Virus record (IMG/VR): IMGVR_UViG_3300045996_000987 | Reading direction: 5' to 3' (one strand) | Length of the DNA stretch: 64,000 nucleotides | Source of the DNA: a virus | Shown: positions 38,048 to 64,000 of the stretch, one piece after another | How positions within the stretch are numbered: the first letter of the stretch is position 1 | How the letters are laid out: every line of letters begins with the position of its first letter | Program-made: the position numbers and the translations under genes | Notes under the pieces: model-generated | What the model was told of the DNA's origin: nothing | What the model saw: only the letters and a program-made list of their open reading frames with translations | Database searches by the model: none

Positions 38048-38048
38048 G

Positions 38049-39161: not shown

Positions 39162-39178
39162 GTTACTGGCCAGTAAGG

Positions 39179-39891: not shown

Positions 39892-39896
39892 GAGGC

Positions 39897-40580: not shown

Positions 40581-40612
40581 GGTCCGTTACTGGGCAGTAA
40601 GAGGGTGAGCTA

Positions 40613-41164: not shown

Positions 41165-41190
41165 GTTCCGTTACTCGCAGTAAGGCGTGG

Positions 41191-41705: not shown

Positions 41706-41781
41706 TCGGTCCTCGTGGTGCTTGGGTGAGTAAGGGGACCAGCAAGGCGGCAGGGCGCCGCCTTACTGGCCAGTAAGCGAG

Positions 41782-42282: not shown

Positions 42283-42345
42283 GATGATCCTCGCAGAAAC
42301 TTGGGTTACTTGACGTGCCTTACTGGACAGTAAGGCGGGACCGCC

Positions 42346-42639
42346 TCAGCACCGTCCGGGCGGGTACTCCTTGTCGAAGTCGGCCTTGAGGATGGCCTGC
42401 TCCGTCGCGTCCTCGTTGAACAGCCTCTCGCGGTACGCGGTGACCTCGGCCGGGGACAGCGGGGCCGGCGTGAGTTCATCGCAAAACGCGTTGTGCGTCT
42501 CGTCCGTGGCCACATCCCGCACCTCGTACATCGGCGCGTTCTCGATGTCCACCTCGGACGGGACGGATAGTTCGCGCACTATCTCCACCTCGATGTCCTT
42601 GAGGTGGGGCGCGTCGGAGTCGATCGAAGTGAAGCGCAT
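42346..42639 (-). CDS. Hypothetical acidic protein
   Basis: 97-aa ORF. Confidence 0.4.
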   Translation of the reverse strand: MRFTSIDSDAPHLKDIEVEIVRELSVPSEVDIENAPMYEVRDVATDETHNAFCDELTPAPLSPAEVTAYRERLFNEDATEQAILKADFDKEYPPGRC

Positions 42640-42657
42640 TGTACTAGTGGTTGAGTG

Positions 42658-43077
42658 TTAGCAGCCCATGCGGCGCTCGGACTCCGCGATCAGGTCGGGC
42701 GGCTCGTACTCGGCCACCTGCCGGACCATATCGACCTTGCCCGTGCCGTTGCACGTCGTGCATGTGACGTCGTAGTTACCCGCCATCATGCCCTCGAATG
42801 CCTCGAAGTCCTCTGCGATGTCGCTCGACGTCCAGACGGAGCACGCGGGGTGCACGCGGCGGCCCTCGCCGTTGCAGTCGTCGCAGATGACCCACTCGCG
42901 AATGCCCTTCGAGCGAAGGTGACGGTTGTGCTGGCGGTGGCACGAGGCCGCGGTGCAGATGAGCCGCTTCGTGCCGTGCTCGCAGCGGGTGAGGTAGTCG
43001 TCGTGCTCGCGGTCCTCGTCCTTCTCCGGGGGAAGCTCGTGCTTCTCCCCGCAGTAGAAGCAGTTGGCGTCTGCCAT
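42658..43077 (-). CDS. Cys-rich zinc-finger protein (DnaJ-type CxxCxGxG repeat)
   Basis: CFYCGEKH, CTAASCH, CDDCNGEG and CTTCNGTGKV motifs; start MADANCF. Confidence 0.4.
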   Translation of the reverse strand: MADANCFYCGEKHELPPEKDEDREHDDYLTRCEHGTKRLICTAASCHRQHNRHLRSKGIREWVICDDCNGEGRRVHPACSVWTSSDIAEDFEAFEGMMAGNYDVTCTTCNGTGKVDMVRQVAEYEPPDLIAESERRMGC

Positions 43078-43106
43078 GGGCGTTACTGGCCAGTAAGGGT
43101 GGAGGG

Positions 43107-43478
43107 TCAGATGATCGCGCCCTTCTGCACGAGCCGGGCGATCAGGTCGCACTTCTTCCAGTACGGCATCGCGACGAACTTCTCGCGATTCGCGTCGTTC
43201 AGCTTGCCCGGCTTGCCGTCGCTGCCCAGCAGCATGTCGATGCGGGCATCGTAGAACGTCTCCATCGCCCAGCCGATGCGCTTGCGAAACGCGGACTCGC
43301 TGATGTCCGTGGCCTTGGCCGGAAGGGGCTCACGGTTGTCGCCCCCGCACGAGCGGCACATACCGTACCCATAGTCGAACGGGTACGGCTCCTGCCCAAA
43401 GACCGTGTTCTCGTCGGCGTTGTTGCGCACGCCGCCGCCACAGCAGGAGCAGGATAGGATGTCGTCCACGATGTGCAT
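43107..43478 (-). CDS. Cys-rich hypothetical protein
   Basis: CSCCGGG and CRSCGG motifs; start MHIVDD. Confidence 0.35.
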   Translation of the reverse strand: MHIVDDILSCSCCGGGVRNNADENTVFGQEPYPFDYGYGMCRSCGGDNREPLPAKATDISESAFRKRIGWAMETFYDARIDMLLGSDGKPGKLNDANREKFVAMPYWKKCDLIARLVQKGAII

Positions 43479-43488
43479 GGTGTCTCCG

Positions 43489-43797
43489 TTACTCGCCCGT
43501 AAGGCGGTGAGTGACCGTCTCGACGGTGTGCTTCTGCACACGCACGAGGCAGGCGATGTGGTATGGAATGGAGAGATCGTTGGGTGCGCGGTACGCCGTG
43601 ATGACGGCGCCGGACAGGTACCACTCGCCCGCCTTCGGAGCACGCTTCTCGCCTGTCCACTCGGCTCGGACCTCGGGCCATGCGAGCTTGCTCAGGTCGA
43701 TGCTCAGGGCTGCCCGCTCTTCGCGGGTGACGTAATCGCCCACGGGGTAGGTCGCGCCCCGGCGCAGCTTCTCGGACGCGTCGCTCTGGTGTGCCAT
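43489..43797 (-). CDS. Hypothetical protein
   Basis: Start MAHQSDASEK. Confidence 0.35.
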   Translation of the reverse strand: MAHQSDASEKLRRGATYPVGDYVTREERAALSIDLSKLAWPEVRAEWTGEKRAPKAGEWYLSGAVITAYRAPNDLSIPYHIACLVRVQKHTVETVTHRLTGE

Positions 43798-43826
43798 GGT
43801 CGTTACTGGCCGGTAAGGGTGGGCGA

Positions 43827-44306
43827 TCAGGGAAGGGGACGGATGGGCGTGCGCATCTTGAGGTTGAGCGTGAAGTAGTGCGGCCGGTGCTCCTTGATGA
43901 TGTCGTGCGCGCTGTCCAGCGATGCGGACCACGCGCAGTCACCGCCGTACTCGACGCACACCGCGCAGTCGCACCGGATGTTGCAGTTCCAGCGCCACAC
44001 GGCCCACTGATAGTGCGTGCAGCGCCCGCGCTCGTCGCAGTCGTTCCCGCAGACCGTGCAGAGCTTCGGCAGAGGAACGGCCGTGCAGGACATGACGATG
44101 TGGGCGCCGGAGTGCTGACCGTTGAACTCCCGGTGCTCGGGCTCGTGGTGCATGTGGCAGACGTCCCGTGTGTCCCTCGTGCGAACCTCGCCATTGGCGA
44201 GCGTCCGGAACGTCTCGCGAAGCTCTGCGCGGAACGTGCAGCGGGTGGCAGGGTTGGCGCGGTTGTGCTGGCAGGTGCGGTGCGTTTGGGCAGGCAGCAG
44301 ACGCAT
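43827..44306 (-). CDS. Cys/His-rich hypothetical protein
   Basis: About 14 Cys; start MRLLPAQ with GGAG upstream. Confidence 0.35.
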   Translation of the reverse strand: MRLLPAQTHRTCQHNRANPATRCTFRAELRETFRTLANGEVRTRDTRDVCHMHHEPEHREFNGQHSGAHIVMSCTAVPLPKLCTVCGNDCDERGRCTHYQWAVWRWNCNIRCDCAVCVEYGGDCAWSASLDSAHDIIKEHRPHYFTLNLKMRTPIRPLP

Positions 44307-44412
44307 GGCCGTTCTCCGAAGGAACATGGTGGGGAGCTAGAAGCTAAGGACCGGGACTGTCAGTGCCAGAGGCGTAGCCCTCCCCCAAAGAGGAGGGCAT
44401 GGATGAGATTAC

Positions 44413-44555
44413 GGAGCAGCCGCGACATGGCCGATGGTCGTGCTGATGGACGTGGTGAGGAAGGACGCCGCCTCGGCCGCCATCCAGAGGAAGCCGAGAA
44501 GGAGGATCGCGCGAGAGGCCGCGCAGAGCTTGCGATCGAGCGAGCGGTTCATGGC
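44413..44555 (-). CDS. Small membrane protein (46 aa, below the ORF-track cutoff)
   Basis: ATG immediately after a palindrome copy; hydrophobic ILLLGFLWMAAEAASFL helix; GCCCTCC...GGAGGGC hairpin downstream. Confidence 0.3.
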
Positions 44556-44573
44556 GTTACTGGCCGGTAAGGC

Positions 44574-44984
44574 TCAGTCCTCGATGGGGGTGAGGAAGAA
44601 CCACGCGGCAGCGTCAGCATCGCCGGACGTGGAGGGGGACACCTTGCCTGCGTGGTGGCCGATCGACCAACGGATCTCACCGCACCCATTGATTGAGAGC
44701 AGCATCACCCGCTGCCCGTCCTCGGTCGTCCACGCGTGGCCGTAGGTGCGCATCCAGCCCGTGCCCTGCCGATCCACCGGCACGATGCAGTAGGTGTTCC
44801 CCTGCTTCGACCAGTAGATGCGGCTGGAGTCAGCGCCGGGGTAGAGGCTACCAGCGGGAATCTGGACACGGCCGTCCTGCCGCATGTAGAGGACTTCGCG
44901 CTTGCGCGCCTCGCGCTCACGCTCCGCGGCACGCTGCCTCGCACGCTCCAGCCACGCCTCCACCTTGCCGTTTGCGTCGGTCAT
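44574..44984 (-). CDS. Hypothetical protein
   Basis: Upstream context is palindrome, then CAAGTAACC, then CGTAGGAGG, then ATG. Confidence 0.4.
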   Translation of the reverse strand: MTDANGKVEAWLERARQRAAEREREARKREVLYMRQDGRVQIPAGSLYPGADSSRIYWSKQGNTYCIVPVDRQGTGWMRTYGHAWTTEDGQRVMLLSINGCGEIRWSIGHHAGKVSPSTSGDADAAAWFFLTPIED

Positions 44985-45047
44985 ACGGTTACCTCCTACG
45001 GGTTACTTGGATGGGACACGCAGCCTTACTGGGAGTAAGGCTGACAG

Positions 45048-45134
45048 GGGACGAGGCACGAATCGAACGTGCGCCTCCGCGAGAACACGCATTACTGAGC
45101 GAGTCGCGGCGCTCTGCCACTGAGCTACCCGTCC
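45048..45134 (-). tRNA. tRNA-like gene with oversized (21-23 nt) anticodon loop
   Basis: Minus strand. Acceptor GGACGGG/CTCGTCC, D-arm GCTCAGTGGCAGAGC, T-arm GCACGTTCGATTCGTGC; the anticodon stem CCGCG/CGCGG encloses ACTCGCTCAGTAATGCGTGTTCT. Confidence 0.35.
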
Positions 45135-45140
45135 GATCTA

Positions 45141-45428
45141 CTAGATGGCGACGCCGTGGCTGTAGTCGCACACCGTGACGCCACGGGCGCGCAGCTTGGC
45201 GTCGATGTCGAGGATGTTGTTGCGCATCCTCTCGGTGATGTACGAGTGGACACCGGCCTTGCACGCGGCCACCCAGTCGGCCACGGCGACCTTGCGGGCG
45301 CCCTCCAGCGTGGCCACGGCCAGCCGGTGCTCGCGCTGCTCGGCCGTCTCGGTGGCGAGCTTGCGCTGCGCGACCGACTGCTGCGTGCGGCGGATCATCG
45401 TGGCCATCGCCTTGTCGTTCGTGCGCAT
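45141..45428 (-). CDS. Hypothetical protein
   Basis: 95-aa ORF. Confidence 0.4.
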   Translation of the reverse strand: MRTNDKAMATMIRRTQQSVAQRKLATETAEQREHRLAVATLEGARKVAVADWVAACKAGVHSYITERMRNNILDIDAKLRARGVTVCDYSHGVAI

Positions 45429-45498
45429 GATCGGTTACCTCAAGCGAAGGGTTACTTGGAACGGCGGCCTTACTGGCAGTAAGGCAGGGGTACTGCGA

Positions 45499-45555
45499 TG
45501 GCATGCCGCACGAGTCGAACGTGCGCGGAGTAGTGCTCCGGTCCAGACGCATGCC
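45499..45555 (-). ncRNA. Truncated tRNA-like element (acceptor, anticodon-like hairpin and T-arm; no D-arm)
   Basis: T-arm GCACGTTCGACTCGTGC is nearly identical to the element at 45048-45134; flanked by GGCATGC/GCATGCC. Confidence 0.2.
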
Positions 45556-45605
45556 GCTTGGCTAGAGCATGGTACAGCCCTCCATTAGCTGAGGAACATC
45601 GGGGA

Positions 45606-45938
45606 TCAGGCGCACGGGCGGGAGAACGGCCATGCCGTACCGAAGGGACTCACGCTCGGCTCCGTGGGGAACCAGTCCACGTAGATCGGCTCGACCGTGT
45701 GGATGGTCAGAATCTCGCCCTTCGAGGGAAAACCGATCGTCACGGGGTCGCCCTTGTCGAGATCGCGAAGCTGGCCGTGCGTCAGGCCGACCGCCATGCC
45801 GTGCGGGCCACTGGCGATGAGGGCGAAGACCACGCCGTGCGGATCGTTCTCGTGCCCGATGAACTTGGCCACAGCCGGGGCGACGTGCGCATCGACGCTG
45901 CCGTTCCGCCGCTCGCGGGCAATCAGGATCTTGCTCAT
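45606..45938 (-). CDS. Hypothetical protein
   Basis: 110-aa ORF. Confidence 0.4.
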   Translation of the reverse strand: MSKILIARERRNGSVDAHVAPAVAKFIGHENDPHGVVFALIASGPHGMAVGLTHGQLRDLDKGDPVTIGFPSKGEILTIHTVEPIYVDWFPTEPSVSPFGTAWPFSRPCA

Positions 45939-45982
45939 GGTTACTTGTGGTGAAGGGTTACTTGCCTTACTGCCAGTAAGGA

Positions 45983-46201
45983 TCAGCGGACGACCGTCTC
46001 GAAGAGGATGACGTAGGGACCGCCCTCGAAGTTCACGCGATCCTCGCCAACGCTCACGATGGATAGGTGCTGGTTGATGGCGATGCTATTGACCGTGGCG
46101 TAGAAGCCAGACTCGGCATCGGGACGCGCGGTGTAGTCGCGCTCTTCGGTTTCCATGGAGTCAGAGCCAGTGCGAGCTATGACCCGGTATGCGAGTCGCA
46201 T
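45983..46201 (-). CDS. Hypothetical protein
   Basis: GGAGG RBS; palindrome and CAAGTCACC upstream. Confidence 0.4.
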   Translation of the reverse strand: MRLAYRVIARTGSDSMETEERDYTARPDAESGFYATVNSIAINQHLSIVSVGEDRVNFEGGPYVILFETVVR

Positions 46202-46316
46202 GTGACCTCCTACGGGTGACTTGCCTTACTGCCAGTAAAGGACTGCCATGCGCGCCCACGGCCCGACCCGTGGCGACCTTACTGGCGAGTAAGGCCGAAC
46301 CCATGCGCGCTCCACG

Positions 46317-46556
46317 TCACTTCCGGGACTGACAAGGGCAGGCGCAAATCTTCGCCATCGCCGCGTCAATCTTCGCCTGCTCGTTCCGCTGGAACCGTTC
46401 GAGGTTGTGTGCACCCATGATGAACACGACGTGCCGGGGCGCATGCTTGTGCTGGAGCATGCGGAACTCGGCAAGCTGCGCGTCGATGAGGTCCATCGCG
46501 CAGCCAGTGCAGTCGCGCCACGGCTTCGTGTAGACGGCGATCGGGGCGGAAGCCAT
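46317..46556 (-). CDS. Glutaredoxin/NrdH-like redoxin
   Basis: IAVYTKPWRDCTGC (CxxC) and PRHVVFIMG resemble the Grx fold; start refined to MASAPIA. Confidence 0.4.
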   Translation of the reverse strand: MASAPIAVYTKPWRDCTGCAMDLIDAQLAEFRMLQHKHAPRHVVFIMGAHNLERFQRNEQAKIDAAMAKICACPCQSRK

Positions 46557-46756
46557 TGCTGTCTCCAAGTGAAGGGGAAAGCTTACTGCCAGTAAGGGAC
46601 GGGGAAGTGGGCCGGCGGGCATCGAATCCCGCACACGGGGCTGTTATCGAGCGAGGGGTTGCGTGTGTCCGATCTTCGGCCCAATGCGCGCCCACGGTGC
46701 GAGCCGTGGCAGCCTTACTGGGCAGTAAGGCCGAACCCATGCGCGCGTTCCATCTA

Positions 46757-47077
46757 CTAGGCGATCTGCAAGGCAGCCATGTCAGCCTTGCGACGCTTGG
46801 CGGCGTGGTGGTAGCTGGCCAGACCGCGGACGTGGACCGCCTTGCGCTCGAACTCGATGCGGGCGGCCGTGGCGACCTTGCGGTCGAGGACCATGAGGTA
46901 GACGTACTGCTCGAACTTCGCGGCGCGCTCCGCGATGAACGCCTGCGAGTCGCGGTAGTAGGTGCCGTGGTCGGACGTGCTCACCCACGCCAGATTGGAC
47001 CCCTGCTCGCGAAGATCGGCCGCGATGCGAGCGATGGCGCGACGGATGGCGAGGAAGATGCGGACCTTGCGGATCAT
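46757..47077 (-). CDS. Hypothetical protein
   Basis: Start refined to MIRKVRIF. Confidence 0.35.
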   Translation of the reverse strand: MIRKVRIFLAIRRAIARIAADLREQGSNLAWVSTSDHGTYYRDSQAFIAERAAKFEQYVYLMVLDRKVATAARIEFERKAVHVRGLASYHHAAKRRKADMAALQIA

Positions 47078-47207
47078 GGGACGTTCTCCGGAACATGGTG
47101 ACGTGTGCCTTACTGGCGAGTAAGGCGAGGGGACTGCCATGGCGCGGCGAGGGCGCGACCCCTCGCGACCTTACTGGCAGTAAGGCCGAACCGATCCGCG
47201 CGACCGA

Positions 47208-47480
47208 CTACTCGGAAGGATCGACGTGGCCAAGCGCGACCACGTTGAGCGTGCACACGTCGCGATCGTCAAACTTCCCGTGCGGGTCGATCCGGGCGAT
47301 TTCGTGCTCGGGTTGCGTGAGGCAGTCGAGGAACGCCCGCGGCTCGGAGCCGTAGGTGAACGTGACCGCGAAGCGGCTGACGTCGGCGCGAGCGGCGAGC
47401 ATGCGACGGCCGTCGTGCTGGCCAAGGAAGAAAGCGGCGAAGGCAAGCAGAACGGCGGCGACGGTGGCGATGGCGCGCAT
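47208..47480 (-). CDS. Secreted small protein (signal peptide)
   Basis: MRAIATVAAVLLAFAAFFLG N-terminus. Confidence 0.4.
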   Translation of the reverse strand: MRAIATVAAVLLAFAAFFLGQHDGRRMLAARADVSRFAVTFTYGSEPRAFLDCLTQPEHEIARIDPHGKFDDRDVCTLNVVALGHVDPSE

Positions 47481-47689
47481 GGGACGGACTCCGGAACATG
47501 GTGGACGTTACTGGCCAGTAAGGGACGGCCCTACGGTACTGCAACGTGCGCCGTGCCTGCGAAAGCACGCGGGCGGCACCCCTGCCTTACTGGCCAGTAA
47601 TGCCGCCCGAACCGATGCGCACTGCCGTTCGACTACACTGGCGGACGGGCGCGCACGTCTCGTGCGCGTCCGGCCGGCAGTCACCACAC

Positions 47690-48403
47690 TTACGCGACCG
47701 GCATGGCAGCGACGTTCTTGCCGACCGACGTCAGGACCGCGAGAATGTCCTTGGGAGCCATGCCGTCGCGCACGCCAGCCTTGACCGCATCGGCGAAGAT
47801 CGCCGCCATCTTCACGGCGTCCATCTTGCCCGTCGTGTCCACGGCCGGCGCGTCGGTCGCGGGCGCGTCCACCGTGCCGCCCTTGCCACCCTTGCGCGAC
47901 GGCGCCGCGGCGGCCCATCCCTGCTCGATGGCGTAGAAGCTGCCGACGTTGCCCGTGAAGAAACCGACCGCGGTCGCACTGCCGTTCATGGCGTCGCGGA
48001 CGGCGCGCGTCACCTTGCTGTACCGGACGGTGAGCGAACGGTAGGCGGTCACGACGGCCGCCATGCTCTCCGGGAACGTGTCGCACGCGTTGGCGTCGAA
48101 CCGATCTTCATCGCTCGCGAACGCGTCCCACATCTTGCGCTCGGCCGGCGACAGCTTGGCCAGCAACCCCGCCCGGAGCGCGTCCACCACGGCCGCCCGG
48201 AAGCCGTCCAGCATCTTGCGCTCGCTCCACGTCGCGAGCCCCGCGGCGACGGCCGCGATGTAGAAGGACCGGGCCACGTTGTCCATCTTGCGCCCGGCCG
48301 ACCGGCCCAACGTCGCGATGTCGAGGTTGTCCGCGATGGCGCCCGTGATGAACGCGGCGGCGATGGCGAACGTGACGTTGGCGTTGCTCGTGGTCTTCGA
48401 CAT
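47690..48403 (-). CDS. Hypothetical Ala-rich protein; first gene of the leftward block
   Basis: Start refined to MSKTTSNANV with AAAGGTGACCAAA-ATG upstream. Confidence 0.4.
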   Translation of the reverse strand: MSKTTSNANVTFAIAAAFITGAIADNLDIATLGRSAGRKMDNVARSFYIAAVAAGLATWSERKMLDGFRAAVVDALRAGLLAKLSPAERKMWDAFASDEDRFDANACDTFPESMAAVVTAYRSLTVRYSKVTRAVRDAMNGSATAVGFFTGNVGSFYAIEQGWAAAAPSRKGGKGGTVDAPATDAPAVDTTGKMDAVKMAAIFADAVKAGVRDGMAPKDILAVLTSVGKNVAAMPVA

Positions 48404-48445
48404 TTTGGTCACCTTTGGAAACTGGGTTGAACAGTCGCAAGGCAT

Positions 48446-49800
48446 TCGCTTGCGACACTGGCGCGCATCGCTCCGAAACGATGCGGAACCTTGCTGCCGT
48501 TACTGGCCAGTAAGGACCGAACCTATCGCGCCGTGACGGTCGCCCGTCACTTGGCATGCGTTCCACAATCCCGGCCCGACGCAATCCCTTGTGTTGAGAC
48601 TGCCGGAATCACTGGCGAATTCCCCGTGTCACGCCCTGTCACGGCCCGGATTCATCGCCCGATATTCCACCGCTCTTGCTTCCCGCATACTTGGCCCCAT
48701 GGCGTCCGGCCGTCGCGACGTTTCACAACGTTGCCCGGATTGCGTCCGCCATTGCCTAGACCGCATTCCCCGCGATGCACTCGGCTCGCTCTTGCGGTCA
48801 CTCGCTCCACCCGGCGCCATTCTGGCGAACCTTCCGCCCGCAACCCGCGGGTTGCGTTTGAACCTCTGGCACCTTGCCCGTTTCCCTTCCCGCCCTTTGG
48901 GGTCCACCGTCCGGTCGCATCCTTTCGGGATTCCATCCCCGGCCCCATCGGGCACGGTGGCGGAATCCGTTTCGGCGCTCCGGCGGGGCCGCTTCCCGAT
49001 CCGGGGAAGCGGCACGCCCCATTGGCGCGGTGTGCCTTTCGGCACTATGTCAATCAGCATGTGGTCCGGGGCCGATACGTTGCGCATGCTTGCCGCTTGC
49101 CGCTTGTCGCGCGCCTATCGGAATGCCGTCCGCCATTCTGTGCCGTACCGTGCGCCACACGTTCGCTTGCCGCTTGCCGCTTGTCCGTGTGTCCTACGCA
49201 ACCCGCCCGCTTGCTCGTGCATCGGAGTTGCCGCCGGTACGTGCCGGTCTTCCTTACTGCCGGTAACGTTGCGTTACCGTATCCGACCCGCTTGTGTCGG
49301 TCGCGCCACGCGTTGCGCACCGGCCGGGTTGTCTTTTCTGCCCGCCGCTTTCCTTCCGACCCCTCCGCATAAGCCCTTTTACGAATGCGGCCATTTTCCC
49401 AAACCCCCCATTTGCACCGACTTACAGCGCTCGATTTGCCATGCGCAAAACGCGAATGCCCCCGGTTGCCCCCATCGTCCTCGAAGTAACTGAGGACATC
49501 ACGGGAGTAACCGGGGACAACGTGTAAGTACCCGAGAAGTACAGGCTTAAACTCAGTGAATCCGACGAAAACGACCCCTTACGCACCCCCTTCGCGTACG
49601 TATGGGGTAGCTCTCGATCAACTCATGGCCATCTCTTCGCGCTTCCTATATAGGAAAAGACGGGATCGACGTTGGAGTAGGTGATGGGGGCCGAAAAGGG
49701 TGCGGGGCCGCTGAGGGCAGTGGGCCGAAAGTGTCCTATACGGCGTAATCGAGAGGTATCAGGTACCGAGTACCAAGTAACCGATCCTCAAGTAACCGCT
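48446..49800. promoter_or_regulatory. Non-coding divergent control region between the leftward and rightward gene blocks
   Basis: No credible ORF (only Arg/Pro-rich noise frames). Contains GCTTGCC direct repeats, hairpin CCGCTTCCCG...CGGGGAAGCGG, AT-rich palindrome TTCCTATATAGGAA (about 49641-49654), GGGCCGAAA(A)G direct repeats and promoter-like element A at 49732-49758. Confidence 0.5.
49732..49758 (+). promoter_or_regulatory. Promoter-like element TGTCCT-N13-GAGAGGTA, followed by two CAAGTAACC copies
   Basis: tgtcct(49732-37) and gagaggta(49751-58), then accaagtaacc...tcaagtaaccgctc-GTG. Confidence 0.45.
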
Positions 49801-49801
49801 C

Positions 49802-50746
49802 GTGCAGCTACAGGTCATTCAGGGCGCAGCCGTGCGCTTCTACAGCCGCATCACCCACGAGGGTGAGCATCACGTCTGGAACAACCCGAGATCCGCGCGC
49901 ACGACGCGCTTTGCCGCGCCCCACGACGGGCGGCAGCAGTTCGGTGAGCCGTCACGCCTCGCATGGATGCTGCACCACGGCTGCGAGGTACCGGCCGAGG
50001 ACGCGATCCGCCGAACCTGCGAGCATCCGCGGTGCGTAAACCCGCTCCACCTCGAACGGCAGTCCGTGCTGCACGCCCGGCGTGTCGAGCAACTGGCCAG
50101 CGAGCTACACGAGCGCCGGCAGAGCGAGGAACGAGAGCGCGTGGCACGGGCCGAGCGCGACCGGCGGGAGGACGCTGAGATCCGCGCGCTACGGGAGCGC
50201 GTGAAGCCACCGCCCTACATGGTGCAGGCCGCGACGCCGGAGGAACTACCGGCGCGTCGGGAGTGCCGACACTGCGGAGCGGACACCGAGCGCGCAAACC
50301 TGATTCAGTCGCGATCTAGCAAGACGGGGCTCTACCGTCAGATAGCGCAGTGTCGGCCGTGCGCGCGGGCCACGAACGCCGGATGGTACCGCCGGAGTAG
50401 CCAGTCGCCCGGCGGGCTCGTGAAGCGCGTCGTCTCCTCAGCACGGAAGCGGGCGCGGGATACCGGCATGGCCTTCGATCTCACCCACGAGTTCGTCGCG
50501 GAGCTATACCGGCGGCAAGGCGGGCGCTGCGCGCTGACCGACATCGCCTTCGAGTTCAACGATTTCAGGACGGGCTGGCAGAGCCACCCACACAACCCGT
50601 CCCTCGACCGGATCGACTCGAAGGGTGGGTACACGCAGGACAACGTGCGCTTCGTCCTGCTCGTCGTGAACGTGGCCCTCCGGGACTGGGGGCTCGAAGT
50701 CGTGCTCCCGGCCCTGCGGGCACTCACGAAGCGGCAGGTTGCCTAG
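49802..50746 (+). CDS. HNH endonuclease-like protein
   Basis: HHGCEVPAEDAIRRTCEHPRCVNPLHLE (HNH_3-like) and C-terminal CALTDIAF...SLDRIDSKGGYTQDNVRFVLLVVN nuclease-like segment; GTG start 6 nt after CAAGTAACC. Confidence 0.5.
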   Translation: MQLQVIQGAAVRFYSRITHEGEHHVWNNPRSARTTRFAAPHDGRQQFGEPSRLAWMLHHGCEVPAEDAIRRTCEHPRCVNPLHLERQSVLHARRVEQLASELHERRQSEERERVARAERDRREDAEIRALRERVKPPPYMVQAATPEELPARRECRHCGADTERANLIQSRSSKTGLYRQIAQCRPCARATNAGWYRRSSQSPGGLVKRVVSSARKRARDTGMAFDLTHEFVAELYRRQGGRCALTDIAFEFNDFRTGWQSHPHNPSLDRIDSKGGYTQDNVRFVLLVVNVALRDWGLEVVLPALRALTKRQVA

Positions 50747-54950: not shown

Positions 54951-55024
54951 GTCCTTCTAGCTCAACTGGTTAGAGCAGCGGACTCTTAATCCGCAGGTTC
55001 TCGGTTCGATCCCGAGGGGGGACA
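54951..55024 (+). tRNA. tRNA-Lys(CTT): tRNA-Lys (anticodon CTT)
   Basis: Cloverleaf: acceptor GTCCTTC/GGGGGAC with two G-U pairs, D-arm GCTCAACTGGTTAGAGC, anticodon loop CTCTTAA, T-arm CTCGGTTCGATCCCGAG. Confidence 0.65.
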
Positions 55025-55166
55025 TAGGTACGGATGCAGTCGGGCCGCGGGAGTACAACATCGGGGGTGTGCGCAAGCACGAGTCGTTCCCCGTCAACGC
55101 TCCGGGTTCCGTAACTTCCGTACCGCTCGATCGAGTGGAAAGACCGGCGAAGACCCGGTACGGACA

Positions 55167-55200
55167 GGCTCCGTTCGTCTAGTCAGATAGGACGCCACTC
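55167..55200 (+). pseudogene. Diverged duplicate of the 5' half of tRNA-Glu (no 3' partner)
   Basis: GGCTCCGTTCGTCTAGTCAGATAGGACGCC shares CCGTTCGTCTA with tRNA-Glu at 55427; no complementary acceptor or T-arm follows. Confidence 0.3.
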
Positions 55201-55426
55201 ACGGCAGGTGTTGGTAGCAGGTGCGGGGCTCGCTTCATGGCGAAGCAATGCGAGGCCACAACCGTCCCGAGGCCCTAAGTTCCCACTGGTAGCTCAGTGG
55301 GCGACCTCCTTCTTAGGGTGTTCCCTCTACTCTTGGAGCGCGAACTAGGTCGCCACTGTGGTCGTAAGCGGGTAGCCTCGGAGTGTCTTGTCTTGGACAG
55401 CCCGCTCGTCGCAGGTGTCAGGTGAA

Positions 55427-55498
55427 GGCCCGTTCGTCTATCGGTTAGGACGCTACCCTTTCAAGGTGGAGAGACGAGTTCGACTCTCGTACGGGCTA
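55427..55498 (+). tRNA. tRNA-Glu(TTC): tRNA-Glu (anticodon TTC)
   Basis: Acceptor GGCCCGT/ACGGGCT, D-arm GTCTATCGGTTAGGAC, anticodon loop CTTTCAA, T-arm ACGAGTTCGACTCTCGT. Confidence 0.7.
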
Positions 55499-55938
55499 CT
55501 GCTCTTCGCTGTAACTTGAAGGGACTTAGGGAAGTGTAGGACCAGTACCGGGGCCGACATGGCATCGACTGGTATGTGACACGGAACGTCGAAGTGCGCC
55601 GAGGGACTTCATCTCGCCTCGTAAATCACGGGTGGACAAAACACAAATGCCAGCGATAACCTCGCGGCAGCGGATCGGCTTCTGGCCGAAGTTCTTGGCG
55701 GCGTAGCCGTCGAGAACCCCCACTTCGCAGCGGTCTAACGACCCTCGTAGCGGGTGACGCAACCCTGACGGACTCCGATACAGTCAGGGGCCTTGCATCG
55801 GGCGACACCGGGAGAGACTGGGGGTCTTGTCAGTGTCCCTTACCACGACTGACGACGGTTGGCTCGCTCGCCACGGGACCGTAACACCCGAAGGAGCTAC
55901 GCGCGCTGAACAAGACTGAACGACGATCATATCAACAC

Positions 55939-55963
55939 GGGAGTTCGATTCTCCCCGGCTCCA
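55939..55963 (+). ncRNA. Orphan tRNA 3'-end-like sequence (T-arm, acceptor 3' strand, CCA) ending a roughly 430-nt non-coding stretch
   Basis: GGGAGTTCGATTCTCCCCGGCTCCA; no matching 5' acceptor or D-arm upstream. Confidence 0.3.
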
Positions 55964-56181
55964 CTTGCTCCACGAGGTCACCATGCAGGTCATGTATCCA
56001 CGGACGCGAGTAACCGTACCGACAATGGAAGACGTGAAGAAGACGTGGGCGAGCCTACGTCATCGTGTGAAGTACGCGGTGAGCAAGACCTACCGTGAGC
56101 AGTTGGAACGGGAACGCGCAGAGCAGCGCGTGCGGGCCATGATGTACCTGCGGACGCCACCCGTCGTATAGCTCGCGGTAC

Positions 56182-56267
56182 GCCGGGGTATCCAAGAGGC
56201 CAAAGGGTGCTGACTGTAAATCAGCCGGGCGCCACGCCCTTCGTAGGTTCGACCCCTACCCCCGGCA
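56182..56267 (+). tRNA. tRNA-Tyr(GTA): tRNA-Tyr (anticodon GTA)
   Basis: Acceptor GCCGGGG/CCCCGGC, anticodon loop CTGTAAA, long variable arm, T-arm GTAGGTTCGACCCCTAC. Confidence 0.7.
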
Positions 56268-56274
56268 CTGTGCT

Positions 56275-56358
56275 GCTCGGATGGCGAAACTGGTAAACGC
56301 GCCAGACTTAGGATCTGGTGGGCGAAAGCCCCTGTCGGTTCGAGTCCGACTCTGAGCA
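56275..56358 (+). tRNA. tRNA-Leu(TAG): tRNA-Leu (anticodon TAG)
   Basis: Acceptor GCTCGGA/TCTGAGC, anticodon loop CTTAGGA, long variable arm, T-arm GTCGGTTCGAGTCCGAC. Confidence 0.7.
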
Positions 56359-56525
56359 TGTTGTCGCGTTTCCCCTGACAGGACGGGCGGTTAGTCATCA
56401 ACCAATATTGTCTGTCGCCGGTAGTTCGGAAATGCTCTCGTTTGATGGGGCGCGCTTGTAGAGGTGCTTAAACGCCGAAACCCCCAAAGGCACCCGTAGA
56501 TGAGCGACGGGGCCGACTACCAATG

Positions 56526-59943: not shown

Positions 59944-60089
59944 TCCCGGCCGCTCTCGTCATCATCGGTGGCGTCGTCCTGCTGATCGCCCGCGACATCG
60001 CCCACTCCGTGCGGAACCGCGCGCTCGAAGCGCGGCTCGCGAAGATCGAGGCGGCGCTAGAGACGGCCTGCCTGCTCTCCAGCAAGTAG
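59940..60089 (+). CDS. Small membrane protein (49 aa, GTG start overlapping the upstream stop)
   Basis: VIPAALVIIGGVVLLIARDIA helix then an amphipathic tail; below the ORF-track cutoff. Confidence 0.3.
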   Translation: MIPAALVIIGGVVLLIARDIAHSVRNRALEARLAKIEAALETACLLSSK

Positions 60090-60096
60090 TAACTCC

Positions 60097-60357
60097 GTGA
60101 GTCACCGCGTGGCCCCTTCGGGGGCCGCGCCCCACGTCCTCCCGACCATGCTCAAGCTCCGCATCCTCTTCTGGTTGCTCGTCGGTTGGTACGCCCACCG
60201 GCAGTGTCGTCTCGGGCAGTACCTCGTGAACGTCGCCCCGACCGGGGCCGATCTCTGGAACATCCGCGACATGGACTGGGCCTTCCGGCTGCGCATGGTA
60301 GCCCTCTACGGCCTCGACTGGGAGTTTCCCGCCAAGGAGCACGATTATGCCCACTGA
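60097..60357 (+). CDS. Hypothetical protein
   Basis: CAAGTAGTAACTCC-GTG; possible internal ATG at 60148. Confidence 0.35.
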   Translation: MSHRVAPSGAAPHVLPTMLKLRILFWLLVGWYAHRQCRLGQYLVNVAPTGADLWNIRDMDWAFRLRMVALYGLDWEFPAKEHDYAH

Positions 60358-60835
60358 GCGCGCTGTGAAGGCCCGGAAGACGTACAACGGCGAGATCCCG
60401 TTCGACCCGTTCACGGGCAACATGATGAGCTATCCGATGCCGCAGTGGGCCTACCGGGATCTCGACACCGGAGAAGTCTTCCCCCGCTCGCAGTTCGTGG
60501 CCGGGCGGAACGCCGAGTCGGTGTGGTTCGAGCCGGCGTACGAGTTCAACCGGATCTTCCGCGCTACGCTCCAGATCACCGGCTTCGGGCGGGGGCGTAG
60601 CTCCGCGGTGGTCTACCTCCGCGTGCTGCACATCCTCGATCCGCTCGGGGGTATCGAGAAGGGCGCACAGTTCTCCATGTTCCTCTCCGACTTCACGGAG
60701 ATGGTGATGGGTGCACGGAGCATCGACGGCGGGGTGCTCGATGGTTGTTGGACGTTCTGCAAGGTGGGCGCGAACTACGGCCTGCGCTGGCTCGGGGAGT
60801 GGGACGACCCGATCGCGCACGAGGACGACGAATGA
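60347..60835 (+). CDS. Hypothetical protein
   Basis: 162-aa ORF. Confidence 0.4.
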   Translation: MPTERAVKARKTYNGEIPFDPFTGNMMSYPMPQWAYRDLDTGEVFPRSQFVAGRNAESVWFEPAYEFNRIFRATLQITGFGRGRSSAVVYLRVLHILDPLGGIEKGAQFSMFLSDFTEMVMGARSIDGGVLDGCWTFCKVGANYGLRWLGEWDDPIAHEDDE

Positions 60836-61077
60836 GCCGGGGCCTCGTTCGTGATCCCCTCGCGCGCTCCATCGAGCGAGTCGTGAAGAAAGGGTGCGAC
60901 GCTCACCTCGGAGGCCGGCAGTGCCGGTGCGGTAGCCGCAATGGCGTCACCCGCAAGACGGCGCAGATCGCCCACTCCGTAGTGACGTATAGCGAGTGCA
61001 ACGACTGCAAGACGTGGCTGATGGACTCTCCCAACCGTCACCGTATGGCGGACGCGCAGTACCGGACGAACCGATGA
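60832..61077 (+). CDS. Zinc-finger protein
   Basis: CRCGS...CNDC motif; ATGA-coupled. Confidence 0.35.
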   Translation: MSRGLVRDPLARSIERVVKKGCDAHLGGRQCRCGSRNGVTRKTAQIAHSVVTYSECNDCKTWLMDSPNRHRMADAQYRTNR

Positions 61078-61367
61078 GCGCTGTCCCGGCATACGCCGCG
61101 CTCCGGGGCATCGCGGTGCTCGACTCCTACGGGCAGACGATCCTCCCCAACGCCAAAGTCGCGTTCAACCAGAGCGGCTTCCTCCGGCTCGGCCGGGTGA
61201 AGACGGCGCGCTGCATGAGTGAGGAGAAGCACCATTGGCGGGGCGTCTGGCGGACGTGGCTCGTGGAGATCGAGGTGATCGAGCCGAACGGGGGCACGCT
61301 GCACACCGCGAAGGTGCGCAACCCGGACGGGATTATCGTGCTCCCGGAGTTCCCGATCCTCCCATGA
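61074..61367 (+). CDS. Hypothetical protein
   Basis: ATGA-coupled. Confidence 0.35.
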   Translation: MSAVPAYAALRGIAVLDSYGQTILPNAKVAFNQSGFLRLGRVKTARCMSEEKHHWRGVWRTWLVEIEVIEPNGGTLHTAKVRNPDGIIVLPEFPILP

Positions 61368-61540
61368 TGGTCGATCTCCGTGACCTCGTGGCCGCGCTCG
61401 TGCTCCTCGCCTTCGGCGGCGCCGGCTCGGCCGTTCTCGCGAACGCGGTGTGGCCGAGCATCCCGGAGGTGCCGCACGTCGTGCTGCGCGTCATCATCGT
61501 CCTGCTCGGCGTGTGGGCGCTCCGCTGGATCGCTCGGTGA
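61364..61540 (+). CDS. Small membrane protein (2 TM helices)
   Basis: Hydrophobic helices; ATGA-coupled. Confidence 0.35.
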   Translation: MMVDLRDLVAALVLLAFGGAGSAVLANAVWPSIPEVPHVVLRVIIVLLGVWALRWIAR

Positions 61541-61553
61541 GTCTGGACACGAC

Positions 61554-61590
61554 GAACGCCCCGCGGTGACTCGCGGGGCGTTCCGTTCGT
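61554..61590. terminator. Bidirectional terminator hairpin
   Basis: GAACGCCCCGCG...CGCGGGGCGTTC 12-bp stem between convergent genes. Confidence 0.55.
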
Positions 61591-61598
61591 TCGGGAGC

Positions 61599-62384
61599 TT
61601 AGAAGGTCGTCCCGAAATCGACCTCGATCAACAGGCCCCTCGGCAGCCCGGCAAGGTCGAGGAGATCCGCGAGCAGCCCGTGCATCTCAGTCATCGGGGC
61701 GAAGAACATCGTCTCGCCCTGCATGCGGCGGGTGTTGTACGTGGTCACCATCGTCCGGAGCCGCTGCCGCTGATCGTGGCCCGTGATCTTCGCGCTCGCT
61801 CGCTTGGTCGGAGGCGGGCTCACCGTCCCGACACCAACGACGGCGGTCCCGTTCTGCGCCGCCTTCCTCGCGCGGAGCTTGATGGCGTTCGGCGTCATGG
61901 AGAGCGGCTTGCCCGTTCGCGGGGAGCGAGGCACCTGCCCGTCGCTGCGCGGCGCCCTCCCCGTGGGATGGGCACCCGGACGGGGCTTCCCGGCTTGCCC
62001 CGCTGCCCGGCGTATCCGTTCGAGTTGGTCCTGTGCGAAGGCGTACTCGTAGCCGCCCGCCAGCAACTCGGCCCGGATGTCCTCCTGCGACCGCCGAAGG
62101 GCCTTCGCGAGCGCCTTCACGAGCGGCGGGACGAACGGGTGGTTCACCGGCAGTTCGTAGTTCCGCTCCATCCGCATGAGCGAGCTATCGGACACCCCGC
62201 TCGCGTCCTGCATGGCGCGGAAGCTCAGGCCCGCCTCCGTGCGCAACCGTGCGAGGTTCTTGCTGACGGCCGCCGGGGGCCGCTGGTAGAACGAGCCCTC
62301 CGCGACACTCCGGAGCGACGGAGGGAGGGCCGTGTTCGAGGCCGGCGGGGTGATCTCCCCGACGACAGGGGCGGAAGCAGCCAT
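61599..62384 (-). CDS. XRE-family helix-turn-helix transcriptional regulator with C-terminal domain
   Basis: SKNLARLRTEAGLSFRAMQDASGVSDSSLMRMERN matches the HTH_XRE pattern. Confidence 0.6.
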   Translation of the reverse strand: MAASAPVVGEITPPASNTALPPSLRSVAEGSFYQRPPAAVSKNLARLRTEAGLSFRAMQDASGVSDSSLMRMERNYELPVNHPFVPPLVKALAKALRRSQEDIRAELLAGGYEYAFAQDQLERIRRAAGQAGKPRPGAHPTGRAPRSDGQVPRSPRTGKPLSMTPNAIKLRARKAAQNGTAVVGVGTVSPPPTKRASAKITGHDQRQRLRTMVTTYNTRRMQGETMFFAPMTEMHGLLADLLDLAGLPRGLLIEVDFGTTF

Positions 62385-62402
62385 GGTGCGGATCTCCTCG
62401 GG

Positions 62403-62894
62403 TTAGGACACGGCGGCGAGCAGTTCGCTCTCGATCGCGTGCCGGAGGTCGTTGATCTGGCCCTTCACCGGGCGCATCTCCTTGAGCGAGCCGTAGCGGT
62501 CGAACCAGCGGCTCAGTTCCCGCAACGCCTGCTCGACCACCTGCTCGCGGAGCCTCGACTGCCGCATGGCCGTCTGGAGGGGGACGTACGCCTTCCGGCT
62601 GTGCGGCGTCGGCTGCACGTAGACGAATGCCTTCGTGGCTGTCTTGCGGGCGCCCTTGACGAGCACCAACTGGGACATGACCGAGCCGGTCTGCTTCGTC
62701 CGGTAGAGGTCGGCCGCCTTGGCGTCGTCGCGCTCGATCAGCGGGTGGAGGGGACTCCGGCGATCGGCCGCCTCAGCCAAGATCGTTTCCTTCGTCACGC
62801 CGCCGTGTTCCGCCGCCAACGCTTCGAGGCGGTCACCGACCGCTTGGGCGTCGGCGGTGGGGAACAGGCTTTCGTTTCGCCATGCGTAGCGCAC
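62403..62894 (-). CDS. Hypothetical protein (GTG start)
   Basis: CAAGTATCC...GGAGACGGTC-GTG context; upstream part of the track ORF rejected. Confidence 0.35.
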   Translation of the reverse strand: MRYAWRNESLFPTADAQAVGDRLEALAAEHGGVTKETILAEAADRRSPLHPLIERDDAKAADLYRTKQTGSVMSQLVLVKGARKTATKAFVYVQPTPHSRKAYVPLQTAMRQSRLREQVVEQALRELSRWFDRYGSLKEMRPVKGQINDLRHAIESELLAAVS

Positions 62895-63042
62895 GACCGT
62901 CTCCGAGTTACAGGGTCCGTGGGATACTTGTGGACAAACGCCGTAAGTGGCTGCCCGCAAGGATGATACCGAGGCGTCCCGGACGGCGCCACCCTCTGCC
63001 CCCGTGGGGTGCCCCGGAGGGTGTAACTGGTGGCCATGGGAC

Positions 63043-63069
63043 TGTCCTGTCCGGGCCGATCGGGAGGTA
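63043..63069 (+). promoter_or_regulatory. Promoter-like element TGTCCT-N13-GGGAGGTA (no ORF downstream)
   Basis: tgtcct(63043-48), gggaggta(63062-69). Confidence 0.4.
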
Positions 63070-63183
63070 ATGGGGCTATTGGGCAAACCGCAGATAGCCC
63101 GGAGGTATTGGCACTCCAGCCCGGCGGGCAAATAACACCTAGAGGTTAAAAATGCACAATTCAACCTAGAGGTTATGGCGGTC

Positions 63184-63210
63184 TGTCCTATCCGGGGAAA
63201 TCGGGAGGTA
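63184..63210 (+). promoter_or_regulatory. Promoter-like element TGTCCT-N13-GGGAGGTA (no ORF downstream)
   Basis: tgtcct(63184-89), gggaggta(63203-10). Confidence 0.4.
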
Positions 63211-63289
63211 CTGCGTGGAGGACTCCACGAACGGGATTCAGTGCCGAAAGCTGGCGCCGCGCTTTTTTCTGCGCAGGCGACGGTTGTTG

Positions 63290-63560
63290 TGGGAGTGCGC
63301 CCGCGCGCCCCTACTACGAGTTACTGAGTTACTTCAACGTCGAAGTAGCTCGTTTGCCAGAGTTACTTGAGAGTGGCAATAAGAGAGTTACTTCGACGTA
63401 ACGGTCTAACTCAGACGTAACACTGAACTCACACGTAAATCACAAGGAACTCGAAGAGCAAAGAGTTACGAGAGAGTTCTAACAACATACGCTCACGTAA
63501 CAGAGAACAGATACTCTTCACGTTACGTCAACGAGAGCGTTGAGTAGCGTTGAGCCTGTG
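63290..63560. repeat. AT-rich island with at least 10 GTAAC/GTTAC-core repeats (GAGTTACT, ACGTAAC, CACGTTAC)
   Basis: About 45% G+C against about 67% overall; copies include AGAGTTACTTG, which is CAAGTAACTCT on the other strand. Confidence 0.6.
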
Positions 63561-63582
63561 GAGAAGACGGGTGACGGGATTC

Positions 63583-63610
63583 TGTCCTACGGGGCAGGGG
63601 ACGAGAGGTA
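63583..63610 (+). promoter_or_regulatory. Promoter-like element TGTCCT-N14-GAGAGGTA(AGGGGCGTAACC)
   Basis: tgtcct(63583-88), gagaggta(63603-10); 27 nt upstream of ATG 63637. Confidence 0.45.
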
Positions 63611-63636
63611 AGGGGCGTAACCCTACAGGAGCGCGA

Positions 63637-64000
63637 ATGTCAGGTCACCCGGATTACCCGATCGTCTACGAGTATCGGGACGGGAGCGAAGTGCACCCGG
63701 AGTGGGCGGGCCAGCAGGTGCCAGTGCCGCCGGAGTGGGTGCGCCAGCGTACCGGGCTCACGCGCGGCTGCGAGTTGGCGTGCCTCTCGCCGGAGTTGAA
63801 GGATCGGTTCAGCCCGGAGATCCGGAAGGGCCTCGTCGCCTACGTGCGCGACTACGAGCGCGTCCGCCGGGACGGCGCGAACCTGCTCGTCTGTGGATCG
63901 GGCGCGAGCTTCCGTCTCCGGCAGTGGGCCGCGGCGGCGACGCTCAACGAGATCGTCATGCGGTGGTCGTCGCGGTACGACCTCTCGGCGTCGTGGCTGT
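63637..64000 (+). CDS. Hypothetical protein, partial (runs off the right edge)
   Basis: ATG 63637 after GGAGCGCGA; open frame to the window end (MSGHPDYPIVYEYRDG...). Confidence 0.4.
   Translation, partial: MSGHPDYPIVYEYRDGSEVHPEWAGQQVPVPPEWVRQRTGLTRGCELACLSPELKDRFSPEIRKGLVAYVRDYERVRRDGANLLVCGSGASFRLRQWAAAATLNEIVMRWSSRYDLSASWL

Follow-up and report, generated by a model that had tools for sequence, protein, structure and literature searches.

Analysis of a 64,000-nucleotide stretch of the virus record IMGVR_UViG_3300045996_000987 (hereafter the window, positions being counted from its first letter) indicated that the gap between the genes at 62403-62894 and 63637-64000 is most likely the control and initiation region of a phage replication module. 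Three promoter-like elements, G, H and F, lie in this gap, and the AT-rich island of short repeats between H and F is most likely a phage replication origin of the transcription-activated type, a reading that we hold with moderate confidence. The segment 63184-63610 is read as the putative origin since its layout matches that of experimentally defined transcription-activated phage origins; G would be an extra upstream promoter copy. The loci compared suggest a conserved unit consisting of a promoter, a non-coding hairpin transcript, an AT-rich palindromic repeat island and replication-initiation genes. The position of the island, its AT-richness, its inverted repeats and the inward-pointing promoter-like motif are conserved, and the family of the downstream gene was identified. 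An earlier note on this DNA had called the island origin-like, a view that is supported by the replication-module context and by eight related loci but not by the GTAAC argument offered for it.

If correct, this reading pinpoints where replication starts in an uncultivated clade of large-genome phages of high G+C content and defines a compact cis-acting unit of promoter, hairpin, AT-rich palindromic island, DnaC-like gene with a degenerate Walker A motif, AEP-primase/DnaB-helicase gene and polA. Lineage-specific repeats beside a conserved module would also form a natural data set for finding the protein that reads the origin. Since transcription-activated, AT-rich, non-coding phage origins beside replication genes are well known as a kind of element, the result is a useful annotation rather than a surprise, and the element would be a previously uncharacterised example of a phage replication origin from a clade without cultivated relatives.

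The AT-rich island and the conserved unit around it

Analysis of base composition revealed that the G+C content over 150 bp falls to 0.42 in the island, the lowest value in the 64 kb, against a window mean of 0.655 (standard deviation 0.039); the lowest-GC stretch begins about 90 nt 3' of H. The island had been described before as about 270 bp of about 45% G+C, which is right in that no stretch of the 64 kb is lower, but the segment then delimited, 63290-63560, measures 0.48. Nine exact GTAAC/GTTAC cores were counted in the island against 1.25 ± 1.1 expected from dinucleotide shuffles of the island itself, and none of 2000 shuffles reached nine. The previous count of at least ten is attained only with one-mismatch variants or with the copies at 62907, 63023 and 63617, the total for the gap being 12. 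The GAGTTAC(TT) family is represented by five copies in the island and three in the other 63.7 kb, and four of the five window copies of the (G/C)ACGTAAC family lie inside the island (Table 1). H (63184) and F (63583) enclose 372 bp that have stops in all frames and no coding-like open reading frame (ORF). Within the island no open frame was found, stop codons occurring in all six frames; together with zero DNA similarity in 50,697 phage records, this lends no support to a degraded coding sequence with homologues, the finding that the earlier note had named as fatal to its proposal.

Several other properties were sought in the island and rejected. A-tract curvature was discarded since only three A/T tracts of at least 3 bp are present, and a type III toxin-antitoxin RNA array was discarded since regular tandem repeats are absent. 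A use of the island motifs as activator sites at other promoters was likewise rejected: the lone GACGTAAC outside the island (12031) is the arm of a terminator-like hairpin after an integrase gene, and AGAGTTAC at 19196 falls in the 3' end of an ORF.

The gene downstream of the gap encodes a helicase-loader-like protein that is cut by the end of the window. A word-index protein search with the 121-aa fragment returned no homologue, and 41 homologues of 164-250 aa, the best of them 49% identical (E 1.8e-31), emerged when 1.84 billion cluster representatives were scanned in full with HMMER. The family alignment shows the DnaC signature (G-x-G-K-T/S...AAA..NE, Walker B LLvvDdL and R...PTI.TT), and the family profile matched E. 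coli DnaC 6qel (E 5.6e-10), Aquifex DnaC and DnaI. The Walker A lysine is lost in the window copy (CGSGASFRLRQW) and in most family members, a minority keeping GxGKT/S. The AlphaFold model of the closest homologue (P0003) has a mean predicted local distance difference test score (pLDDT) of 95.5, and its best structural matches in Foldseek were DnaC, DnaI, DnaA domain III and IstB; P0003 had zero matches among isolated phages. The gene at 63637 was accordingly placed in the initiator/loader AAA+ clade. No DNA-binding domain was recognised in its product. A conserved stretch of about 75 aa (YE..DG....AG..VPVPP.WVR.R), for which no homologue was detected, extends the N terminus of all family members.

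Eight family members with usable upstream DNA were looked up (L090, L093, L094, L095, L096, L099, L100 and L103), a ninth, P0010, lying on a contig without upstream DNA; the window and the eight relatives are referred to below as the nine loci. In all eight relatives the loader-like gene is followed by a gene of about 80-120 aa and then by a gene for an AEP-TOTE primase fused to a DnaB_C helicase, and DNA_pol_A follows wherever the contig reaches far enough. In L102 (1140-4586) an intein containing a LAGLIDADG homing endonuclease is present in the AEP-primase/DnaB-helicase gene, which is 1148 codons long. A non-coding gap of 325-1084 bp was found upstream of the module in all nine loci, directly 5' of the loader-like gene in seven of the eight relatives and thus in eight of the nine loci, and in L099 as a 389-bp gap two small ORFs further upstream. 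The lowest-GC 150 bp of the whole locus fall inside this gap in nine of nine cases. On both strands the islands of all nine loci fold better than their dinucleotide shuffles (z from -1.1 to -8.1; for the window -3.4 on the plus and -2.1 on the minus strand), and this symmetry between strands points to DNA palindromes or inverted repeats rather than to one RNA strand.

Comparison of the islands indicated that their repeats are lineage-specific while their position is kept. The window and L099 contain GAGTTACT and CGTTGAG, L094 contains AGAGTAAC / GAGTTACT, L093 contains GTAGTTA, CTCTAGA and AGAGTTAC, and L103 contains TACGGTACCGTAACGGGAGTTACGG units; the repeats are TTGAGAGTAA in L090, ATAAGGCA in L095, GGTCTACCAACGTTGAG in L096 and CAAGAACTGGAAAC in L100. 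The 8-mer AGAGTTAC was found in five of eight islands, with nine copies in total, and a back-of-envelope estimate of the number of 8-mers so widely common by chance is far below one. A minimum of cumulative GC skew lies at or near the gap in four of the eight relatives, gene orientation being unchanged there, which is weak evidence for an origin.

The motif TGTCC-N10-20-GAGGTA occurs in the window 16 times against 0.16 expected, or 14 times once one nested match and one probable ribosome-binding site are dropped, and its copies are all in sense relative to the local genes. G, H and F belong to this phage-wide family, so that the three promoter-like elements described earlier are indeed present. 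Over 34 nt G matches H at 82% identity; the two represent the CGGGAGGTA subclass, shared with the motif 5' of the serine recombinase gene. F is a complete module with GGAGAAGA upstream (63561-63568) and GGGGCGTAAC downstream (63612-63621); it belongs to the CGAGAGGTA-AGGGG(Y)GTAAC subclass together with copies at 51862, 54648, 57012 and 59014. As previously stated, no coding-like ORF was found behind either G or H; the 39-aa ORF at 63030 was taken as non-coding because its G+C content at third codon positions is about 51%, against more than 80% in window genes. Candidate sigma70-type promoters were sought and none was found on either strand.

The inward-pointing motif recurs in the relatives. 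TGTCCY-N-GGTA, with a fixed length of 27-28 nt and without an ORF behind it, lies upstream of the island in eight of the nine loci, the copies found in relatives being all in sense relative to local genes, and a counterpart of H stands at the start of the gap in L090, L093, L094, L095, L096, L099 and L103. H is regarded as the probable conserved first promoter of the unit, to judge from its sequence, orientation and recurrence. Tandem motifs like G and H are also present in L093, and a second promoter-like copy 3' of the island was found in the window and L099 only.

The inverted repeat GGGCTAT...ATAGCCC and the doubled direct repeat ACCTAGAGGTTA, both reported in the earlier note, are present between G and H (Table 1). 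No special role is claimed for the inverted repeat, since promoter-following hairpins are no more stable than random 45-mers; the idea of a special 5' hairpin after every promoter was rejected on the same comparison, the mean energy being no better than that of random 45-mers of the same genome. A search for complementarity between the putative G and H transcripts and the rest of the window gave nothing beyond promoter similarity. Each ACCTAGAGGTTA copy is nearly palindromic and the second one ends 8 bp 5' of the TGTCC of H; the pair are candidate operator sites. CTAGAG(T)TAC-type sequences recur in the islands of relatives.

Between H and the island a conserved hairpin of 60 nt with a U/T-rich loop was aligned in five of the nine loci (window, L090, L094, L096 and L099), with 13 consensus pairs of which three are changed on both sides. 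The covariance model R1 was trained on these five sequences, so their matching holds by construction; it gave the window hairpin 60 bits, and detected a single copy in each of these loci and no further one in 137 kb. No convincing terminator was found between H and the island, the sole weak terminator-like site being the U-rich loop of this hairpin, and a transcript from H is thus more likely to enter the island than to stop at about 100 nt. Of the short non-coding transcripts proposed before for G and H, the non-coding character is backed by the ORF-less inward motif, but an end at about 100 nt is not, for want of such a terminator.

The proposed origin would work as follows. H, and its extra copy G, would fire rightward to give a transcript coding for nothing, which would pass the U-rich-loop hairpin and enter the island. 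The island would be the easiest-melting DNA of the window, and its lineage-specific repeats and palindromes are the presumed sites of a phage replication protein, candidates for which are the DnaC-clade protein, by way of its N-terminal extension of about 75 aa, and the AEP-primase/DnaB-helicase. Transcription may open the island or leave an RNA-DNA hybrid as primer, after which the loader-like protein and the primase-helicase, made from the genes just downstream, would assemble at the island. F would drive the replication genes separately. In this phage only, a leftward cassette with a helix-turn-helix (HTH) gene and the two ACCTAGAGGTTA sites lie by H, and a repressor may silence H, and hence the origin, in the lysogen.

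Alternative readings of the island

A number of observations weigh against an origin. The cores of the island are not classical phased iterons of 17-22 bp, since they are 8-9 bp long, stand in both orientations at irregular distances of 8-78 bp and form no regular tandem array. Helical phasing of the cores at 10-11 bp, suggested earlier as a check, was rejected, the best period being 11.3 bp with p = 0.46 against random placement. The DnaA box TTGTCCACA is found exactly at 62929 and with one mismatch at 63557, both on the minus strand; the 10 DnaA-box-like sequences of the window, against 7.2 expected, are at chance level. No recognised origin-binding domain was found in the proteins adjoining the island. 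The relatives are metagenome contigs of 30-49% protein identity, and in four of the eight GC skew gives no support for an origin. In six of the eight no second promoter-like motif follows the island, so that the island would be transcribed there as the 5' leader of the replication operon, and an RNA-level or regulatory role explains this equally well. Finally, a second large non-coding region (48445-49802), which carries GCTTGCC repeats at about 49090-49190 and a moderately low-GC patch (0.51) at 49508-49686, is a candidate for an alternative or additional origin or control region.

The arrangement in those six relatives leads to the view that the island serves solely for regulation, as a long untranslated leader or an array of operators that determines when and how strongly the replication genes are expressed, and that the origin lies elsewhere. 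Such control might act through a bound repressor or activator, through cleavage by RNase at the large hairpins or through attenuation at the U-loop hairpin. In these relatives the sole promoter-like motif of the gap stands upstream of the island, which places the island inside the replication-operon transcript. The conserved hairpin 3' of the promoter would fit as well, as would, in the window, the divergently adjacent HTH gene and the two near-palindromic 12-mers on the -35 side of H. Against this, the two strands have symmetric fold z-scores, which is no argument for an RNA element specific to one strand; the other promoter regions of the window are free of the island repeats, whereas typical phage operators recur at several promoters; and relatives without the HTH cassette still keep the island. 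A purely regulatory island is considered unlikely, though it deserves to be kept in mind; regulatory and origin roles are not mutually exclusive.

It is improbable that the island has no specific function and marks a junction between mosaic modules, where filler rich in AT and in repeats and the decayed remains of promoter modules are tolerated. Such pieces do occur in the gap: GATTCAGTGCC at 63235 (63233-63246) resembles the GATTCTGTCCT half of the promoter motif, GGAGGGTGTAACTGG at 63016 resembles a segment 3' of promoters, and GGTGCCCCGGAGGGTGTAACTGG (63008-63030) matches the leader and ribosome-binding segment 3' of the promoter at 53836. These vestiges, at 63233-63246 and 63008-63030, suggest that the gap may have grown by duplication of promoter modules, and the island sequence is poorly conserved between relatives. 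Selection is nevertheless argued for by the locus-wide GC minimum in the same gap of nine of nine loci, the 8-mer AGAGTTAC shared by five of eight islands and the conserved hairpin.

Two further readings depend on a motif that is dispersed through the genome. Of the 91 GTAAC copies in the window, 48 are in sense and 0-40 nt 5' of predicted starts, and four serve as stop codons; the motif precedes roughly half of the predicted window genes. Its dispersed form in the window is AAGTAACC, with AAGTAYCC variants (for example at 45940 on the minus, 39162 on the minus and 59104 on the plus strand). In relatives the form is (AGGAC)N GTAACT ATG, abutting the start codon, and 47 of 81 copies lie at most 40 nt from a start. 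The motif is clade-wide, being kept with its sense bias in all relatives. GTAAC-core enrichment is significant in four of the nine islands, and the non-enriched islands use AGAGTAA, ATAAGGCA, GGTCTACCAACGTTGAG or CAAGAACTGGAAAC. A separate 14-bp perfect palindrome, TTACTGGCCAGTAA, has 20 copies with at most two mismatches against 0.03 expected, all in one minus-strand gene block (32908-48513) and many directly 5' of starts (CCTTACTGGCCAGTAAC-N0-5-ATG).

The first of these readings takes the island as a non-coding RNA gene, the H transcript pairing through AGUUAC/GAGUUAC with many mRNA leaders or with its own leader (63617) and tuning translation. GAGTTAC is strand-biased, with 11 sense and two antisense copies across the islands, the sense motif stands before starts as described above, no ORF follows H, and in the window island folding is slightly better for the sense than for the antisense strand. 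Against these points, about half of the relatives' islands have no GTAAC/GTTAC enrichment though their start-associated motifs persist, the complementarity extends over 6-8 nt only, neither an Rfam family nor a terminator was found, and the nine islands show no consistent strand preference in their structure z-scores; we consider an RNA gene very unlikely. A related possibility, slighter still, is that the origin transcript might double as a multi-site antisense RNA that would tie the translation of numerous phage genes to the activity of the origin. Five GAGUUAC(U) copies are present on the island's sense strand, and their AGUUAC core is complementary to GUAACU, the start-abutting form of the relatives; in the window the start-associated motif is mostly AAGUAACC, so that the complementarity of the island there is 5-8 nt. 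To our knowledge, the trans-acting partner postulated for the start-associated sequences of mycobacteriophages was never found; if the idea were true, an antisense origin transcript would be such a partner. More intriguing than the origin annotation is the start-associated motif, which is in part complementary to the island.

The second, put forward in the earlier note, makes the island a dense platform for a factor that reads both the GTAAC start-associated sequence and TTACTGGCCAGTAA. On this reading it would act as a nucleation or titration site comparable to a stoperator cluster of mycobacteriophage L5. The GTAAC core is indeed common to both, and GTAACTC also stands 5' of the starts at 60097 and 62894. 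The flanks differ, however, with AAGTAACC before genes against AAGTAACTC and GACGTAAC in the island, the TTACTGGCCAGTAA palindrome is limited to 32.9-48.5 kb, and the islands of L090, L095, L096 and L100 use unrelated repeats with the start-associated motif kept. Since about half of the relatives' islands have unrelated repeats and the motif is kept all the same, a common factor is not required; the proposal is weakened further by GTAAC enrichment in only four of nine islands of a clade in which all members carry the motif, and it is given little credence.

A partition (parS), packaging (pac/cos) or attP site is the least probable of all: short repeats in two orientations in AT-rich DNA are also typical of centromere-like sites, cosB/pac and the arm sites of tyrosine-integrase attP, but the partition or packaging site envisaged earlier is not supported by the neighbouring genes, which include no ParA, ParB or terminase family (nor is there any parA/parB type among 80 scanned ORFs) and in all nine loci are replication genes, in the relatives loader-like, primase-helicase and DNA polymerase A genes, and attP was rejected because both recombinase genes of the window are 45-50 kb away, no integrase gene lying beside the islands of relatives.

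The phage and the left flank of the gap

The window, of 65.5% G+C, has the appearance of part of a large phage genome. Its genes include those for ribonucleotide reductase, a clamp loader, a DnaN-like sliding clamp, a 5'-3' exonuclease, a large serine recombinase, a tyrosine recombinase and a DpdA 7-deazaguanine DNA transglycosylase, and its RNA genes are four to five tRNAs and one transfer-messenger RNA (tmRNA). Because of the DpdA homologue the phage DNA is probably 7-deazaguanine-modified. One phage fragment thus carries two recombinases, of serine and tyrosine type, and the predicted tag peptide of the tmRNA is unusually long and ends in AAV. In Rfam searches zero matches at E <= 1 were obtained in 60000-64000, and the window matches at gathering score were the tRNAs and the tmRNA only.

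Searches for relatives at the DNA level were largely negative. Megablast and blastn of the window DNA against the 50,697 phage records gave zero similarity, even at E <= 1, and an exact 35-mer of the island had zero matches in IMG/VR. The promoter pattern gave single chance matches only, without protein similarity, in IMG/VR, JGI metagenomes and GTDB genomes. Locus searches of IMG/VR seeded with either flanking protein or with the DnaC-like alignment found none, and one seeded with the 5'-3' exonuclease found 77 loci, all of at most 35% identity and none with the motifs. Relatives of the clade were found neither among isolated phages nor in IMG/VR, and the sole DNA-level relative found was a JGI contig of 2.3 kb (L001) identical to 60204-62486.

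The left flank of the gap is a leftward cassette of two genes. An identical copy of its 261-aa HTH gene is present on L001, and one early gene of the temperate cyanophage Cy-LDV1 encodes a homologue, 28% identical, of the 163-aa protein. CAAGTATCC, GTAACTC and GGAG sit 5' of the GTG start of the gene at 62403-62894. A comparable cassette directly upstream of the replication module was found in none of the eight related loci, and the cassette looks like an insertion in this lineage because it is absent from all relatives.

Table 1. Positions of the features described in the gap and elsewhere in the window
Feature	Position	Strand	Remarks
AT-rich repeat island, proposed origin core	63302-63574	.	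Low GC, repeats, ORF-free
GAGTTAC(T), five copies	63317, 63325, 63359, 63384, 63462	+	Inverted variant at 63343
(G/C)ACGTAAC	63395, 63414, 63494; 63522	minus strand for 63522	
GCGTTGAG, two copies	63537 and 63547		Absent from the earlier note
Imperfect palindrome, about 100 bp	63319-63421		RNA-fold z = -4.4; absent from the earlier note
Promoter-like element G	63043-63069	+	TGTCCTGTCCGGGCCGATCGGGAGGTA; motif family member; extra upstream copy without ORF behind
Promoter-like element H	63184-63210	+	Motif family member; points into the island; no ORF behind
Promoter-like element F	63583-63610	+	26 nt 5' of the start codon at 63637
Inverted repeat GGGCTAT-N14-ATAGCCC	63073-63100 (arms 63073-63079, 63094-63100)	+	Immediately 3' of G; folds as a stem of 7-8 bp
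ACCTAGAGGTTA, two exact 12-bp copies, 27 bp apart	63137 and 63164 (63137-63175)	+	Sole exact copies in 64 kb
Conserved 60-nt hairpin, U/T-rich loop	63240-63301	+	GCUGGCGCCGCGC-UUUUUUCU-GCGCAGGCGACGGU; between H and the island
DnaC/DnaI/DnaA-clade AAA+ helicase-loader-like protein, N-terminal 121 codons	63637-64000	+	Reaches the end of the window; first gene of the replication module
Function-unassigned gene, 163 aa	62403-62894	-	phrog_15946, PHROG match E 1.5e-12; first gene of the leftward cassette
XRE-family HTH regulator, 261 aa	61599-62384	-	Pfam HTH_31, E 5.7e-6; second gene of the leftward cassette
tRNA/tmRNA cluster	54951-56359		Four tRNA genes and a 417-nt tmRNA gene; Rfam RF00023, 69.9 bits
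Second large non-coding region, 1.36 kb	48445-49802	.	Switch point from minus-strand to plus-strand gene blocks
DpdA homologue	32927-33688	-	PF23859, E 1.2e-75
Tyrosine recombinase, 344 aa	17390-18424	-	Sits among replication genes
Large serine recombinase, 758 aa	12068-14344	-	Preceded by a promoter-like motif of the G/H subclass

Comparison with characterised phage origins

The origin of the Lactococcus Ceduovirus phages (c2, bIL67 and 923 types) is a non-coding segment in the divergent intergenic region between the first two early promoters, PE1 and PE2; PE1 has neither a ribosome-binding site nor an ORF behind it, its non-coding transcript is thought to start replication, and lineages differ in the stretch that separates the two promoters (PMC7150918). 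The gap of the window resembles this arrangement in having an ORF-less first promoter-like element, a non-coding segment between such elements and a position that is kept while the sequence varies. It differs in that no sequence similarity exists and in that c2 origins replicate plasmids without phage proteins and sit between early and late blocks, whereas the window element, part of a genome of 65% G+C, stands directly 5' of phage genes for a loader, a primase-helicase and PolA and has in addition short repeats of GTAAC type and a U-loop hairpin. The activity of the c2 origin is proven, that of the present one predicted. Since there was no blastn match to the 50,697 phage records, the likeness to characterised origins is architectural and not by descent.

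The primary origin of T7 has the tandem promoters phi1.1A and phi1.1B and, after them, an unwinding element rich in AT, and replication is primed or activated by the transcript; the reference given for it is Saito et al. 1980 (PNAS 77:3917, as listed in PMC12839067). In T4, oriF and oriG follow the same logic with a middle promoter and an unwinding element. G, H and the AT-rich island are arranged in that order too. Unlike the T7 element, which is about 60 bp long, has no repeat families and is read by the phage's own single-subunit RNA polymerase, the window island is about 270 bp long, palindromic and filled with repeats.

The P4 ori contains 8-bp repeats in both orientations that are bound by the P4 primase-helicase. 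With this and the other iteron origins (lambda ori, P1 oriR, P4 ori/crr) the island shares a genome-unique cluster of short repeats by AT-rich DNA and initiation genes, and repeats that diverge between relatives. Its repeats lack the regular spacing of 17-22 bp, no origin-binding domain was recognised, and it is placed 5' of the loader-like gene instead of within an initiator gene.

The start-associated sequences of cluster K mycobacteriophages and the stoperators of L5 served as further comparison systems (PMC3203893). Like the former, the GTAAC motif of the window is asymmetric, in a single orientation and a few nt before starts, and its core is common to some island repeats; the cluster K consensus, GGGATAGGAGCCC, is unrelated, and the likeness concerns the dispersed motif and not the island. 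Unlike both cluster K start-associated sequences and stoperators, the island is a dense two-orientation cluster in an AT-rich gap.

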